Of a stretch of 64,000 bases of DNA, positions 2,750 to 64,000 are shown piece by piece. The stretch's first letter is position 1, and each line of letters starts with the position of its first letter. The stretch is from Escherichia phage EC100: the sequence record NC_105587.1; one strand, given 5' to 3'. Both the position numbers and the translations under genes were made by a program. The notes beneath the pieces are model-generated. The model did no database searches. It had not been told where the DNA came from and worked only from the letters and a program-made list of their open reading frames with translations.

Positions 2750-3282
2750 TAATAAGTAACCAATTCCTGTACAAATCGCAGGCTGTTATCACTGTTTGCG
2801 CCAACTGCATAGACTAATCGGGTGGATTCATAATTATAATCCAGTATCATACTATCTAGGTGTATATCTGCCTCTAGCTTCTGTTCGCTAAAGATTGTAG
2901 ATACAAAAGCACTTTCTATATGCCCATGTTGGTACATTTCTAGAAGAAGATTAGCTCCGCCTAGAACTACTGTTTGCTGATCTTTTAGAAAAGTAGGTAA
3001 TGTATCACCTATCATTGATATGGGAGTGTAAATATCATGTGTAATATCGTCTGGCAGTGGACGATCAGCACGAATAAATAGGTCAGAAGCTCCAATCATA
3101 CGTTCCCTAACGGCGTATGGAAGAGCTAAATAAGTACCTGCCCCAATAATAATATTATCAGGATTTAGTACATCTAATTGTGAATAAAAAGCATCTAGTT
3201 CTTCTTTAAAAGAACCCCAGGGAAGCTTACCTCGGAGGCCGAACTCCCCATTCGGCCCAACTGCATATATTGCTGTAATCAT
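2749..3282 (-). CDS. frd: dihydrofolate reductase
   Basis: 177 aa; DHFR-like N-terminus (IYAV...GxxGxLPW); sits between thyA and nrdB. Confidence 0.75.
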   Translation of the reverse strand: MITAIYAVGPNGEFGLRGKLPWGSFKEELDAFYSQLDVLNPDNIIIGAGTYLALPYAVRERMIGASDLFIRADRPLPDDITHDIYTPISMIGDTLPTFLKDQQTVVLGGANLLLEMYQHGHIESAFVSTIFSEQKLEADIHLDSMILDYNYESTRLVYAVGANSDNSLRFVQELVTY

Positions 3283-4424
3283 AGGAAATCTCCAAATTCA
3301 TTGCCCAGATCTTTCAGAGTATCAGTAGAGGTCTCAGTTACCTGACCTACACGGTAAGCTGCACCAATCTGGATTTCTTGTGGAGCAGGCTGTAGAGAAG
3401 TAGTATCCAACCAGTTCATGATCCACGGAATAGGGTTTTTGGTGATTACTGGTAAGTGACTAGGCCATTCTACACCAATGTGCATAAATGCGTTACGTCC
3501 CACAAAGTACAAGTATTCTTCTAGAAGTTCTGCATTCAAACCAATCAGACTACGACCTTTGAAGATGAAATGACCCCATTCAATTTCAGTTTTCAGAGTT
3601 TTCAGGAGCTGTGCTGGTGCTTTAGCCACTGCTTCATCTACCAGATCTTTGTCAAACTGCTGGAACATAATCTGGATGATTGTTTTAGACATCTGAGTAT
3701 GTAGGGCTTCATCTTTAGCAATCAACTGCAGATTTTTAGCAATACCTTGCAGAATATCGTTCTCTGCTAACGCAAAGGTACATGCAAAGGATGCGTAGAA
3801 CTGCATTGCTTCTAGACCGTAGATTGCAAAATAAGCGTCTAATAACTTAGCCTGAGTTTCACGTTTAACTTCAGGAAACTCTGTTTCTGGGTAAGTATTA
3901 TCACCACGATGATCGCGTACTGCGATGAAATACTGACCTAACTGGTACAATTCATCGAACAGTTCAACAGAATCAGCGATACGTGCGAATGCTTCTTGGT
4001 TTTTAGTTACAGAATCAATAAATTCTGCCGGATCAGTCAGCACATTACGGATAATATTGCTATACGCACGACTATGCAGGTCTTCAAAATAGCTCCACTG
4101 CTTGAGCATACCTTCCAATTCTGGACGGCTTACAAGCGGCATAATAGCTGCTTCAGGAGCACGACTGATAAAGGAATCTGTTTGAGTCTGCCATGCTAAG
4201 TTCAGGAGTGTGATTTCCTGGATTTCACGTGGGAGATTGGGCCATTGTTTCTTATCTGCTTCCAGACTGATTTCAGTTTCAGTCCAAAATTGAGAGCGTT
4301 GCAGAAGTGCCAGACGTTCTAGTTCTGGATGTGCTACACGTACATAATCTGCGATACCTAGAGAATCGCCCAGGAAAAGATCAGCGTTAGTATGATCCCA
4401 ATTCAGGTTTAGTAAAGTAGTCAT
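3279..4424 (-). CDS. nrdB: ribonucleotide reductase class Ia beta subunit
   Basis: 381 aa; ferritin-like di-iron RNR small-subunit pattern; GAGGA SD. Confidence 0.9.
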   Translation of the reverse strand: MTTLLNLNWDHTNADLFLGDSLGIADYVRVAHPELERLALLQRSQFWTETEISLEADKKQWPNLPREIQEITLLNLAWQTQTDSFISRAPEAAIMPLVSRPELEGMLKQWSYFEDLHSRAYSNIIRNVLTDPAEFIDSVTKNQEAFARIADSVELFDELYQLGQYFIAVRDHRGDNTYPETEFPEVKRETQAKLLDAYFAIYGLEAMQFYASFACTFALAENDILQGIAKNLQLIAKDEALHTQMSKTIIQIMFQQFDKDLVDEAVAKAPAQLLKTLKTEIEWGHFIFKGRSLIGLNAELLEEYLYFVGRNAFMHIGVEWPSHLPVITKNPIPWIMNWLDTTSLQPAPQEIQIGAAYRVGQVTETSTDTLKDLGNEFGDFL

Positions 4425-60804: not shown

Positions 60805-62727
60805 TTAGGTAAGGCGTTGAATTATAAGTTTAATATTTGGTAAGCATGCTTTCATGCCAATTATATTGCTCATAGAGGATTCTAACCAAATAGAGATATT
60901 ATTATTTCCATCATTTCTCATATAGTATGTTAGAGTATAGTAACCCGTTTGACCTACGGATCCTGGCAACCCAGATACCCAGTACGGAGTTGGAGTATAC
61001 CCAGCAGCCTGTAATTTACAAGCATTTACTACAGTACCTTTAATAGTAAAAAATGGTACATATTCTCCTGCAGGTAGGGACAATATTTGGTGAAGTTTTT
61101 TATCGATAGTATTGCCACCCATTCTAAACCTACTATCGCCATATTCAGCGCCTTTAGATAGCATTTCCGTAGGATTAAAGCAGCCAATACCTCCTGCAGA
61201 CAACCATGTGTCATCCAGGAACTCCATAGTACATACAATTGCGCCATTTCTACTACTATTAAGATCTAGTCCCACGGTGCCAACATGCACGGAACCATTA
61301 CCCTGAAATACTATGTTACCAGATAGTACAGTACTTCCGCTACCACCTAGAAGTCTTAAAGGTAAAAGATTCTCACTCCAAACATCTCCATAATTGCTGC
61401 CTATTTTTGGAGGATTACTAGAAACATACCAAGATGCTGAAGGTAAAAAGTTATAAATACTAACTACATTAGTATTTAAACCACCAACGTTACCGCCTTT
61501 AATACTTGGTGCGTTATTGCTTTCCGTAGTGGGCAGCCCAAATGTTGCTATGCCAGAGATCCCAGTAGAGGGGGCACCCATACTCAAGTTACACCCAACA
61601 TCACGAAAATCAGCCCTGTTACCGACATTGAAGTTTTTCTCTATAAAGTTGATAAACTTCCAAGATGTATTATTAACGTTAATCCCTTTAATAATAAATT
61701 CAGTGGGGCTTAATTTTATATCATTACCTGTGAATAATCCAGCATCAATACTATAACCTGAACCATTATACACTAAGTTAGTAACATACCAGGTAATTTT
61801 AGATGGATAAATACCGAGGTGCTCACTATATATACCTATGGGCCCATTAGCAGCATCATTCGGATCACCCATACTTTCCCAATACGCATAGTTAGTGGGA
61901 TCAGCACGTGCGAAACCTACAGAGTACTTAGGGGCCGAGGGATTGCTAGGATTAGACATAAAGTTAAGAGCCCCAGAACTAGAAGCACCGTGCACGGCTC
62001 CAGCAGTAGTATAGTTAGGCCCCTCCATACCGTAAAGAACTCTATTACAAGACCTTCCACGAACATATATGGCATTAAATCCAAAGTTTCTAGCTCCGGG
62101 ATGCCTAACGTAGTCGCTAGGGATAGTTAGAGTTCCTGAATCCGGCACTACATATCCTGAACCATCCCAGGCAGACTTATAAAGAGCGGCACCCCCTAAG
62201 TACATTGCACTAGATGCAAACCCTCTACGTCCACTAAAGGCTCCAAATATATGCTGACATCCAGTACCATCTCTTAACTTTTGTGGTATAGTGCCACTAG
62301 TACCTGTATTAAAATAGCCTACATCAAGTGAAAGATCGGCACTAGCTGTTATTTGTGTTTTTAACCCACCCTGAGACATAACCTGAGGATTTATAATACC
62401 ATAGGCTTTTGCACCTACCCCCATAGACATGCCAGATAACATATGTCTAGAGCCATCAGAAAACTCAATTTCTGTTAATACAACCCTATTAGGGTCATTA
62501 TTATGTAGCTGTGTAATTCTACTAGGCATTTCAGACCAGTAATAGTCACCAGCGCCCTGATCCAATCTTAATCCAGTAGAATGAGTTTCCGTTATAATTA
62601 CGTGCGGCATATCTGAATGAAAGATGGTTTGGGAATCAGGGTTGATATGTTGGTTAGTATCTCCACCACTACCCCTTCGCAGTGAGAGTATAGATTTGTT
62701 ATTTAGCTTACCAGCGAAAAAACTCAT
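60805..62727 (-). CDS. oad: receptor-binding tail protein (T5 pb5/oad-like)
   Basis: 640 aa; Gly/Ser/Asn-rich beta-type composition; divergent from an Llp-like lipoprotein gene. Confidence 0.6.
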
Positions 62728-62746
62728 AAGTTCTCCAAAAATTTAG

Positions 62747-62775
62747 TTGCTTATACTGCCATAATTCTGTATAAT
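62747..62775 (+). promoter_or_regulatory. cassette promoter, TTGCTT-17-TATAAT, for llp
   Basis: -35 62747-62752, -10 62770-62775, GAGGAG SD before ATG 62807. Confidence 0.6.
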
Positions 62776-62806
62776 AGTATTATAAATTAAATAGAGGAGA
62801 ATGTAA

Positions 62807-63040
62807 ATGAAAAAATTATTTTTAGCTCTGGCAGTGGTACTTCTTTCGGCTTGCTCTACTTTTGGGCCTAAGGATATTAAATGTGAGGCCTACTATATAC
62901 AGGATCATGTGAAATATAAGGCTAATGTTTTTGATAGAAAAGGGGATATGTTTTTGGTGTCACCAATTATGGCCTATGGGTCTTTCTGGGCCCCGGTAAG
63001 CTACTTTACCGAAGGAAATACATGCGAGGGAGTTTTCTAA
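62807..63040 (+). CDS. llp: Llp-like lytic-conversion lipoprotein (superinfection exclusion)
   Basis: 77 aa; signal peptide with lipobox LLSAC; small Cys-containing mature domain; adjacent and divergent to the receptor-binding gene. Confidence 0.7.
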   Translation: MKKLFLALAVVLLSACSTFGPKDIKCEAYYIQDHVKYKANVFDRKGDMFLVSPIMAYGSFWAPVSYFTEGNTCEGVF

Positions 63041-63194
63041 GTAAAAACCACCCCAGTAACCATCACCACTTAAGATGAATCTAGTGCAGAATTAGTTCAG
63101 GATGCCACACAAGACACTATGGAGGGTGTGATGGGAATATTTACACTAATCGCTGCAATTGCTAGAATATTTTAAATACCACACTTATAGGAGC

Positions 63195-63332
63195 ATGAAA
63201 GATATGTCAAACAAAAGAAAGAGCAGACGTGGAGAAGTGTACGATAGCTGGATTAATAGCTTTGGGTTCGGAACTATCCTATTCTTTATTTTCGTAGGTT
63301 TTTGGTTAGCAGCTATGGCGGGGTGGATTTAA
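63195..63332 (+). CDS. small membrane protein (45 aa)
   Basis: Hand-found ORF with AGGAG SD; basic N-terminus then one hydrophobic helix (TILFFIFVGFWLAAMAGW). Confidence 0.3.
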   Translation: MKDMSNKRKSRRGEVYDSWINSFGFGTILFFIFVGFWLAAMAGWI

Positions 63333-63439
63333 TGGAATGGGTAATTATTGCACTACTAGGGATTGTGATTATTGGGCAATGTATTTTAGATAATCACTTA
63401 GCTAGAGTTGAAACTTTATTAACGGAGAAACGTAAATGA
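63332..63439 (+). CDS. small membrane protein (35 aa)
   Basis: ATG overlaps the upstream stop (TAATG); hydrophobic helix EWVIIALLGIVIIG. Confidence 0.3.
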   Translation: MEWVIIALLGIVIIGQCILDNHLARVETLLTEKRK

Positions 63440-63630
63440 TGGAGGTAGCAATTACACTAATAGTAATACTAGTTTGGGTAATCTTTATTGCCTCTCGTAT
63501 TGTGTACGTTCGCCTAAAAACTCTAGAAGCCCAGGTAAAACAACAACAAGTTGCTCTAGAAAAGCTAGTATTACTCCAACGTTGTGATAGCACCCGTATT
63601 CTGCAAATTGAGAGGGAATTAGATGTTTAG
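63436..63630 (+). CDS. small membrane protein (64 aa)
   Basis: ATGA overlap with the upstream ORF; N-terminal TM helix then coiled-coil tail. Confidence 0.35.
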   Translation: MMEVAITLIVILVWVIFIASRIVYVRLKTLEAQVKQQQVALEKLVLLQRCDSTRILQIERELDV

Positions 63631-63868
63631 TATTATAGTTGCTTTTATTATCGGAGTAATCGCGGGAGTTTTCGGAATGACTGCGGCTATTAACAAGCAT
63701 CGTAAGTATACTGCGGAAGTATCGCGGGAGATTGCGGAAAGAGAGCGGAAGTTTGACGAGAAACGTGCGGAGTTTGAGCGGGAGTGGTCGGATGGATCTC
63801 GGGCGTCGCGGAAGAGATTTCGTGAGTTTAGACCAGAGCACAGGTTTGATGACCCTTCTATGCGCTAA
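63623..63868 (+). CDS. small membrane protein (81 aa)
   Basis: Overlaps the upstream ORF; N-terminal TM helix then charged Arg/Glu-rich tail. Confidence 0.35.
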   Translation: MFSIIVAFIIGVIAGVFGMTAAINKHRKYTAEVSREIAERERKFDEKRAEFEREWSDGSRASRKRFREFRPEHRFDDPSMR

Positions 63869-64000
63869 TTTGGAAATCTCGAAATTTCATAAGATTACAC
63901 ATGGAGGTGTGTCCAGTGGCCCTCCAGATGAGAATGAGTCTCATTACCGCCTGGTACTTAGCAGGCTAATAGTCACGGCATGTTATCATTACACACCGTG

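Follow-up and report, generated by a model that had tools for sequence, protein, structure and literature searches.

In some other phages, superinfecting phages are excluded by small inner-membrane proteins, of which T4 Imm, P22 SieA and HK97 gp15 are examples. Phage T5 has a single characterised exclusion gene, llp, and this encodes a protein of a different kind: Llp, of the Cor family, carries a lipobox, resides in the outer membrane as a lipoprotein, and varies in step with the receptor-binding protein. The four genes considered here lie beside llp, in the same orientation, and are probably co-transcribed with it, yet their products have neither signal peptide nor lipobox and do not vary in step with receptor type. 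They resemble Imm, SieA and gp15 in being small membrane proteins dispensable for lytic growth in the laboratory, and they adjoin a gene with a proven role in exclusion. They differ from these three proteins in that there is no similarity at the level of sequence or profile, and in that their soluble parts are predicted to be cytoplasmic. Among the known exclusion families (Cor/Llp, Imm, Sp and Sie), ORF1-4 match none; only the neighbouring llp has a match, to phrog_1119 (Cor). A classic model phage, T5 has many small membrane proteins that are conserved yet uncharacterised, and these four are among them.

The window, that is the whole 64,000-nucleotide stretch of DNA analysed, makes up the right-hand end of a T5-like phage; it is 100% identical to Escherichia phage EC105 and ~94% identical to T5. 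The four ORFs are homologues of T5.159, T5.160, T5.161 and T5.162, which correspond to orf1-orf4 of GenBank X75922 (Decker et al. 1994) and to ORF148-151 in AY587007. Over this region nucleotide identity with T5 is again ~94%, and the ORFs agree in order, length and overlaps and likewise lie between llp and the right terminal repeat, so that these are the same genes with allelic differences only. The same arrangement, with llp followed by four co-oriented, overlapping ORFs and then by the right terminal repeat with the convergent dmp, is found in 34 related loci. The T5 annotation describes each of the four as 'contains single transmembrane domain', and the EC105 GenBank record already holds all of them under the label 'hypothetical protein'. 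The initial annotation of this DNA was thus right to call them genes, whilst overlooking that they are T5.159-162, annotated since 1994; as sequence features they are already known. It is very probable that they form a cassette in which four genes, orthologous to T5.159-T5.162, are coupled in translation and encode very small bitopic proteins of the inner membrane. In practical terms, the analysis provides corrected gene models, with an ORF1 of 42 aa and a mini-ORF which is a pseudogene fragment, along with a testable hypothesis of function. The features of the locus are collected in the table.

Table. Features at the right end of the window (positions in the 64,000-nucleotide stretch)
Feature	Position	Strand	Evidence
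llp promoter, TTGCTT-17-TATAAT	62747..62775	+	X75922 annotation (82-110, mapped to window)
llp, lytic-conversion lipoprotein, 77 aa, FhuA-blocking type	62807..63040	+	phrog_1119, E 4.9e-19
Remnant of a decayed phrog_16810 gene, holding the 14-aa mini-ORF	63041..63203	+	alignment to HK6
Candidate internal sigma-70 promoter, TTTACA-17-TGcTAGAAT	63140..63168	+	10/12 match plus TG
ORF1, T5.159 homologue, 42 aa	63204..63332	+	phrog_8596, E 3e-32
ORF2, T5.160 homologue, 35 aa	63332..63439	+	phrog_6369, E 7e-26
ORF3, T5.161 homologue, 64 aa	63436..63630	+	phrog_5851, E 7e-32
ORF4, T5.162 homologue, 81 aa	63623..63868	+	phrog_6447 'membrane protein', E 1e-46
Right terminal repeat, approximate start	63910..64000		T5 repeat_region 111532 mapped to window
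Terminator-like hairpin between ORF4 and convergent dmp, cut by window end	63967..64000	+	partial stem

The PHROG profile matches of ORF1-ORF4 each span the whole profile. The ORFs had been described as chained by TAATG and ATGA, and both junctions are present, the former as a 1-nt overlap between ORF1 and ORF2 and the latter as a 4-nt overlap between ORF2 and ORF3; to these must be added a third junction which had been omitted, the 8-nt overlap of ORF3 and ORF4 (ATGTTTAG). The length of 45 aa originally given for ORF1 has to be revised. The ATG at 63195, from which it was counted, stands 1 nt from GGAG, and at least 8 relatives have ACG, ATT or ATA in its place. It is the ATG at 63204, ~10 nt downstream of a conserved GGAG, that is conserved as the start, so ORF1 has 42 aa, in agreement with the T5 annotation.

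Four lines of evidence bear on the reality of the reading frames. An unbroken chain of ATG-initiated ORFs spans 100% of 63204-63868, against a mean of 15% and a maximum of 75% in dinucleotide shuffles (n=3,000), and the chain and its hydrophobic segments exceed chance. The frames of ORF1, ORF2 and ORF4 are intact in all 34 related loci and that of ORF3 in 27, with gene order kept. Start/stop overlaps and Shine-Dalgarno motifs persist across these loci at nucleotide divergence of up to ~27%. In-frame pN/pS is 0.18 for ORF1, 0.27 for ORF2, 0.41 for ORF3 and 0.40 for ORF4 (0.25 over codons 1-66 of the latter), whereas shifted frames give 0.7-2.0, and the sense frame is the lowest for all four. 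Together these findings bear out the reading of the region as four genuine genes, co-oriented and coupled in translation. They leave very little room for the view that the ORFs are untranslated and that the region is a leader or trailer, part of the terminal repeat, or coding on the other strand, an explanation which we consider extremely improbable. What speaks for it is that the proteins are very short, that gene callers disagree on the start of ORF1 (42, 45 or 57 aa), that several records leave ORF1 unannotated, and that peptide evidence for the four frames is absent: neither proteomic nor ribosome-profiling evidence for the proteins was found, the Bas33 dataset searched being RNA-seq only, and the literature searched yielded no ribosome profiling of T5. 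The terminal repeat, which had been named as a possibility that would undo the gene assignments, is ruled out since it starts at ~63910, ~40 nt past the ORF4 stop; in phage Elw, 'Right Repeat 1' begins 43 nt past that stop. An Rfam scan of 62700-64000 returned nothing meaningful. The antisense strand does lack stops for 74-130 codons in all relatives, but when ORF4 is recoded at random with synonymous codons, a mean of 80.3 out of 81 antisense codons stay open, and the openness of this strand over ORF4 is therefore compositional. The 118-aa antisense ORF at 63485-63841 was accordingly set aside as a by-product of composition, its partial pN/pS signal being the expected mirror effect.

Upstream of ORF1, a 14-aa mini-ORF with its own Shine-Dalgarno sequence had been proposed at 63131-63175. 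The ORF is physically there, with GGAGG 5 nt upstream of its ATG, but its standing as a gene is contradicted by poor conservation and by homology to phrog_16810. Among the 12 phages with this llp type the ATG is found in three and the TAA stop in three; the window and T5 alone combine the two, so the mini-ORF is unsupported as a gene, a role already largely refuted by this lack of conservation. The frame across 63041..63203 aligns through two stop codons to an intact 105-aa protein of phage HK6 (E 9e-12), and the nucleotide alignment reveals two deletions relative to HK6. The intact HK6-type gene is a member of phrog_16810 (E 5e-65) and is found with at least 80% coverage in 171 phage records; in Epseptimavirus relatives the gene, of 104-105 aa, is intact. 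In the window, by contrast, a frame of ~104 aa is interrupted by two in-frame stops and two deletions and lacks a conserved start. The mini-ORF, which corresponds to the middle of the intact gene, is therefore a pseudogene fragment of a decayed phrog_16810 gene, lying outside the cassette. The hydrophobic nature of the peptide, the well-placed GGAGG and the intact ORF in both the window and T5 might instead suggest that it is a working micropeptide gene, or that it regulates the cassette as a leader peptide; given its poor conservation and its homology, and given that a candidate promoter sits within it, this is very improbable.

That promoter, at 63140-63168, is retained as a lineage-specific candidate. 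Outside the window, T5 and S130 it is not strong: at the aligned site in BtuB-type loci 5-7 of 13 positions match, and only the -10 TAnnnT is widely kept. The probable start of the transcription unit holding the four ORFs is the llp promoter, for which AY587007 also gives the annotation 'putative early promoter T5P41'. A terminator is neither annotated nor found between llp and ORF1, folding there being no better than in shuffles (z +1.26), and within the unit from llp to ORF4 a strong hairpin occurs only after ORF4. At the same place T5 carries a hairpin of 15 bp (dG -24.2, z -7.0) which its annotation gives as a rho-independent terminator, whilst in relatives sharing the sequence type of the window this position is occupied by a different hairpin (z -5.0). 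Most simply, llp and the four ORFs form one early unit which ends at the hairpin that it shares with the convergent dmp. For T5, transfer of the left repeat in the first step has been described (PMC10644984). The four ORFs lie outside the ~10-kb direct terminal repeat and do not belong to the pre-early genes of that step. RNA-seq of Bas33 accords with this, since at 20 min transcripts of the block reach levels like those of llp, and since the block is silent, with no reads, when second-step DNA transfer is blocked, although these data were analysed without strand specificity and the per-gene values are erratic (0.5-460 TPM for adjacent genes).

Each ORF has one hydrophobic segment, as the initial annotation had stated, with maximum Kyte-Doolittle values of 2.23-2.99 over 17 residues and 2.13-2.74 over 19; only 8.6% of the window's 187 small ORFs reach 2.2 over 17 residues. 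The N-terminus of ORF1 is basic, and its hydrophobic helix lies at the C-terminus, as in tail anchors. In ORF2 the hydrophobic helix begins at residue 1 and is followed by a short basic tail. The N-terminal hydrophobic helix of ORF3 runs into a coiled-coil-like helix, and the AlphaFold model is a single helix over residues 2-63 (pLDDT 87.6); in ORF4 it leads to a highly charged helix and a variable tail, the model being helical over residues 2-68 (pLDDT 72). The distribution of charge predicts anchoring in the inner membrane and, by the positive-inside rule, it is probable that the soluble parts of all four proteins face the cytoplasm. The coupling of translation suggests that the proteins are made in fixed proportion, and they may act together.

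Scans of the four proteins against Pfam, NCBIfam and PADLOC gave only sub-threshold noise from transmembrane or coiled-coil segments. For ORF4 these included LapA_dom (2e-4), ZapG-like (6e-3) and FtsL (0.02); the scores of 21.6 bits against LapA_dom PF06305 and 17.0 bits against ZapG-like PF06295 fall short of gathering cut-offs of 28 and 33.5, respectively. A search of 5.8 billion proteins with ORF4 and ORF1 found T5-like phage proteins only, at 67% identity or above, and an HMM profile of ORF4 run against 1.84 billion representatives gave 5 matches, all of the same family. In these searches the four proteins are confined to T5-like phages and match no known family.

Among the relatives the cassette is conserved across two genera which infect several hosts, Epseptimavirus included, whilst its surroundings change. 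The llp module is replaced in most of them by an 88-aa lipoprotein, with homology resuming at ~63163, and llp is exchanged together with the receptor-binding module while the cassette stays. The cassette has itself been subject to gain and loss. ORF3 is cleanly absent from 7 of the 34 loci, a 51-aa paralogue of ORF2 (E 7e-7) is inserted in some relatives, and the last ~15 residues of ORF4 are replaced where homing endonuclease genes have been inserted. A link of ORF3 to the ORF2/51-aa paralogy is only suggestive (E 0.019). Loss of ORF3, gain of the ORF2 paralogue and the lack of cost on knockdown in the laboratory mark the cassette as an accessory module. This last point comes from CRISPRi-ART in T5, in which knockdown of each of T5.159-162 gave no fitness phenotype and all were scored 'Not Fit', a label which is weak evidence as many T5 genes expected to matter (tail, endolysin) carry it too.

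Superinfection exclusion, host takeover and lysis timing had each been put forward in the initial annotation as conceivable roles. The best explanation for these features, and one that we propose tentatively, is that the cassette serves to convert the inner membrane of the infected cell after DNA injection. The left end of T5 DNA enters the cell first, and llp and the cassette are therefore the last of the unique genes to arrive. Both would belong to the same post-injection programme of envelope conversion. In it, Llp closes the outer-membrane receptor, and the role of the four proteins would be to alter the inner membrane, by resealing it or by preventing more T5-type DNA from entering. Such action would be independent of the receptor, because the cassette is unchanged when llp is swapped together with the receptor-binding gene. 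The fuller version of this proposal, namely a receptor-independent inner-membrane system which is produced only after the infecting genome has completely entered the cell, and which either reseals the membrane or stops the DNA of any superinfecting T5-like phage from entering, whatever outer-membrane receptor that phage relies on, we regard as unlikely. It would represent a second, family-specific layer of lytic conversion, made up of four coupled micro-proteins without relatives elsewhere. Action at the inner membrane after DNA entry would also bear on two long-standing questions about T5, namely on how the channel of two-step injection closes and on how related phages which use other receptors are excluded. 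Against conversion of the inner membrane stand several considerations. The synteny with llp is the sole tie to exclusion, and for two genes to be neighbours in a phage genome counts for little as evidence; the proteins have no homology to Imm, Sp, Cor or Sie proteins or to any other characterised family; topology comes from charge distribution alone and the inner-membrane location is a prediction; and no experiment assigns a function. In the literature searched no paper's text mentions T5.159-162 by name, and no experiments on exclusion phenotypes of the four proteins were found.

Lineage-restricted, fast-evolving and dispensable small genes with a history of gain and loss are also typical of accessory or anti-defence loci. 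The cassette might, then, encode micro-proteins for host takeover or counter-defence, inhibiting a target in the host inner membrane (for example an abortive-infection effector bound to the membrane, or a protease, or a factor in division or envelope biogenesis) instead of acting on incoming phage DNA. The PHROGs class of phrog_6447, 'moron, auxiliary metabolic gene and host takeover', points the same way, as does the architecture of ORF4, in which an N-terminal transmembrane helix precedes a predicted cytoplasmic coiled coil as in the bacterial bitopic proteins of the ZapG/YhcB-like (PF06295) and LapA_dom (PF06305) families. Those family matches, however, are all below curated cut-offs and reflect composition of the transmembrane-plus-helix type, the only profile relatives of ORF4 being T5-like phage proteins. 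There is no PADLOC match, this role has neither a known target nor a phenotype, and universal conservation in two genera with several hosts is less typical of strain-specific counter-defence genes. Such a role is possible, though rather doubtful. Timing of lysis is a good deal less likely. Small proteins with a single transmembrane helix and charged tails do resemble holins, antiholins and i-spanins, and the N-terminal membrane helix followed by a coiled-coil-like helix in ORF3 and ORF4 recalls the Rz-like i-spanins in particular. In T4 the t-type holin is regulated by small partner proteins; T5 has a holin of this T4 t-type (phrog_860), which the cassette might modulate. But the lysis genes of T5 lie elsewhere, with endolysin (T5.040), holin (T5.041) and Rz-like spanin (T5.044) annotated together ~90 kb away, and this weakens the case. 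ORF1-4 match no holin or other lysis family, have no spanin PHROG or Pfam match at E <= 0.01 and are not adjacent to an endolysin gene. An i-spanin has type II topology (N-in, with a periplasmic coiled coil), a partner outer-membrane lipoprotein encoded within or next to its own gene, and a place in a lysis cassette, whereas here K/R residues come only after the helix, from which the opposite N-out/C-in arrangement is predicted, and the only lipoprotein nearby is Llp, with a known different role. The unit carries an early promoter, and knockdown of the four genes has no effect on fitness, whilst the holin C1 was scored 'Fit'.

More distant Demerecviridae differ at this position, Proteus and Vibrio phages having unrelated genes there. 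The Klebsiella T5-like phage vB_Kpn13-P3, which lacks llp and counterparts of ORF1 and ORF2, has two genes (74 aa, phrog_37669, and 153 aa) lying, as the cassette does, between the receptor-binding gene and the convergent dmp. The positional analogue weakly matches Rz-like spanin PHROGs (E 0.003-0.07), which lends the lysis reading some further support. In both products, as in ORF3 and ORF4, a hydrophobic helix at the N-terminus leads into helical or charged sequence; the two genes have no BLASTP similarity to ORF3 or ORF4, and are analogues by position and shape only.

ORF1–ORF4, the four small overlapping ORFs downstream of llp (the gene of an FhuA-blocking lipoprotein), form a chain that the initial annotation described largely correctly. 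They cover 63204-63868 without gaps (100%), whereas coverage in 3,000 dinucleotide-preserving shuffles averaged 15% and reached 75% at most. The stop/start overlaps proposed earlier are present, TAATG at ORF1/ORF2 and ATGA at ORF2/ORF3, and the third junction is an 8-nt overlap (ATGTTTAG). Shine-Dalgarno-like motifs upstream of all four starts are conserved. Of the original lengths, 35, 64 and 81 aa stand, but the 45 aa given for ORF1 becomes 42: ATG 63195, 1 nt past a GGAG motif, gives way to ACG, ATT or ATA in eight or more relatives, whereas ATG 63204, which has a GGAG some 10 nt before it, is kept. Each product has the hydrophobic segment ascribed to it, with hydropathy maxima over 17 residues of 2.23-2.99; only 8.6% of the window's 187 small ORFs reach 2.2 or more.

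Features from the llp promoter to dmp, the convergent gene beyond ORF4
Feature	Position	Remarks
llp promoter	62747-62775	annotated in X75922; putative early promoter in AY587007
Decayed phrog_16810 copy	63041-63203	llp-ORF1 spacer; 104-105 aa when intact, unknown function
Mini-ORF	63131-63175	14 codons, GGAGG motif
Candidate internal promoter	63140-63168	TTTACA-17-TGcTAGAAT
ORF1	63204-63332	42 aa
ORF2	63332-63439	35 aa
ORF3	63436-63630	64 aa
Antisense ORF (rejected)	63485-63841, minus strand	118 aa; overlaps ORF3 and ORF4
ORF4	63623-63868	81 aa
Partial hairpin	63967-64000	between ORF4 and dmp; cut off by window end

IMG/VR and GenBank supplied 34 distinct loci related to this one for comparison: every one has unbroken frames for ORF1, ORF2 and ORF4, 27 have one for ORF3, and the overlapping junctions are kept. 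In the annotated frame, pN/pS (Nei-Gojobori) is 0.18, 0.27, 0.41 and 0.40 for ORF1 to ORF4, and 0.25 when ORF4 is limited to its conserved codons 1-66, against 0.69-1.97 in shifted frames. Thus ORF1–ORF4 are conserved, selected and translationally coupled coding frames with hydrophobic products, and it is scarcely credible that the region is non-coding. The antisense strand also carries a stop-free run of 74-130 codons in every relative. For every ORF, however, the sense frame has the lowest pN/pS, antisense included, and when ORF4 is randomly recoded with synonymous codons the antisense stays open over a mean of 80.3 of 81 codons, so its openness is a by-product of ORF4's Glu/Arg/Lys-rich composition.

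The genes are real, and they were known before. Window 62700-64000 is 100% identical to the record ends of Escherichia phages EC105 and EC104 in GenBank and shares about 94% identity with phage T5, where ORF1–ORF4 are annotated as T5.159, T5.160, T5.161 and T5.162, each noted "contains single transmembrane domain". They are orf1-orf4 in X75922 (the 1994 llp/oad/dmp record), ORF148-151 in AY587007, and hypothetical proteins with exactly matching coordinates in EC105. The observation thus rediscovers genes already on record though uncharacterised, and its interest is modest.

The mini-ORF that had been placed upstream with its own Shine-Dalgarno motif is present, but it is not a gene. Among 12 phages of the window's llp type its ATG occurs in three and its TAA stop in three, and the window and T5 alone have both. 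In phage HK6 the stretch is longer and forms an unbroken 105-aa ORF, with which the window frame aligns across two stop codons (E 9e-12); the intact 104-aa form matches phrog_16810 at E 5e-65. The intact gene occurs in 171 phage records at 80% coverage or more, mostly of Epseptimavirus, and extends ~60 nt into the start of ORF1 in a different frame; in Bas26, of that genus, the order is llp, phrog_16810, ORF1, ORF2, ORF3, ORF4 and convergent dmp. The mini-ORF is therefore a pseudogene fragment of a decayed fifth gene, of which T5 keeps only the C-terminal half. Counterparts of 63041-63203 lie in related loci L040 (625-942), L027 (2323-2637) and L043 (1595-1909).

The llp and receptor-binding module has been exchanged between phages while the cassette (ORF1–ORF4) was kept. 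Homology restarts at about 63163, the recombination boundary, within the decayed remnant; the swapped block (62700-63163 versus loci L004-L028) encodes a 77-aa FhuA-type lipoprotein versus one of 88 aa in BtuB-type phages. The cassette itself is plastic. ORF3 is cleanly absent from 7 of the 34 loci (L012, L014, L015, L021-L023, L025), by deletion exactly from its start codon to that of ORF4, which leaves ORF2 coupled straight to ORF4. The ORF2 allele of these loci is a distinct one of 34 aa with ...ARIERKLR... at its end; it is also found beside ORF3 in L027 (2710-3008). L004, L017, SUT_E1520, HK6 and Bas33 contain an inserted 51-aa ORF2 paralogue (E 7e-7). In many relatives homing-endonuclease genes lie directly 3' of ORF4, and its last ~15 codons give way to unrelated tails; this end, by the terminal-repeat edge, resembles a hot spot for insertions. 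The endonucleases, HNH-type and of at least three kinds, adjoin or overlap the ORF4 homologue (L005, L019-L021, L024-L026 and L028 around 3180-3720; L038 1435-1720; L042 11881-12420).

The cassette lies in a transcribed region, downstream of an early promoter and outside the terminal repeat, which begins at about 63910, beyond the end of ORF4 at 63868; the refuting case raised beforehand, terminal-repeat sequence, does not apply. No terminator is annotated between llp and ORF1 or was detected there by scanning or folding, and the internal promoter candidate has a good score in the window, T5 and S130 alone and a poor one in loci of the other llp type. Given the llp promoter, llp and ORF1–ORF4 are thus most simply one unit, and would be co-transcribed. 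The first terminator-like element on their strand lies downstream of ORF4: a 15-bp hairpin in T5 (dG -24.2 kcal/mol, z -7.0) and, at the same position in relatives of the window's sequence type, one of different sequence (z -5.0). The position, 63967-64000 in the window (compare L044 1879-1917 and L010 3346-3384), fits a conserved bidirectional terminator just within the repeat. In Bas33 at 20 min, RNA-seq reads fall on the homologous block and are essentially absent when daunorubicin blocks second-step DNA transfer (PMC13250531 Dataset S1). TPM in two control replicates was 462/408 for the ORF3 homologue, 162/137 for the ORF2 paralogue, 219/127 for llp, 22/13 for the ORF4 homologue and about 1 for the 108-nt and 129-nt genes (PMC13250531); being uneven between genes and not strand-specific, these data show transcription of the region only.

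ORF1 has five K/R within its N-terminal 23 residues and a C-terminal hydrophobic segment; in ORF2, ORF3 and ORF4 the segment is right at the N-terminus, followed by 4, 8 and 18 K/R. By the positive-inside rule, the soluble parts are predicted to be cytoplasmic, and the proteins probably reside in the inner membrane, where they may act as a complex. AlphaFold models single helices for ORF3 (residues 2-63, pLDDT 87.6) and ORF4 (2-68, pLDDT 72, tail disordered).

The left end of T5 DNA is the first to enter the cell (PMC10644984), so ORF1–ORF4 follow among the last unique genes, and they vary independently of the receptor. Hence their products might, speculatively, bring about a conversion of the inner membrane once injection is over, either resealing it or excluding other phages whatever their receptor, paired with Llp at the outer membrane; this is a tentative possibility. 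A host-takeover or counter-defence role is a slightly less likely rival. Pfam, NCBIfam and PADLOC scans gave no match above thresholds, and each protein has a separate PHROG of unknown function. Lysis timing is improbable, the T5 endolysin (T5.040), T4 t-type holin (T5.041) and Rz-like spanin (T5.044) being annotated away from the cassette. In a CRISPRi-ART screen T5.159-162 were "Not Fit" (scores -3.55 to -4.11; PMC11879866 source data), as were many structural and lysis genes (PMC11879866), which makes the label weak evidence of dispensability. None of the papers searched mentions T5.159-162 by name in its text, and neither proteomics nor ribosome profiling of the four products turned up in the papers and datasets searched.

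In large-scale protein searches relatives of ORF1 and ORF4 are restricted to T5-like phages, the ORF4 profile finding five matches in 1.84 billion representatives; no ORF1–ORF4 homologues were found in more distant T5-like phages of Klebsiella, Proteus and Vibrio. Klebsiella phage vB_Kpn13-P3, which lacks llp, has 74-aa and 153-aa genes between its receptor-binding gene and dmp (L046 3872-4560), with an N-terminal helix and helical tail as in ORF3 and ORF4 but no detectable sequence similarity to them; Proteus and Vibrio T5-like phages have unrelated genes there. Annotation errors around llp and ORF1–ORF4 occur in ON185582 (the window's phage), OR621298, AP019559 and OP594723. In EC105 (ON185582) llp is called 'lysozyme'; ORF2 and ORF3 homologues in Elw and SP15 bear the name 'tail fiber protein' or 'tail assembly protein', and a shortened ORF4 homologue in PS3-1 'tail fiber protein'. 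ORF1 is left without annotation in several public records.
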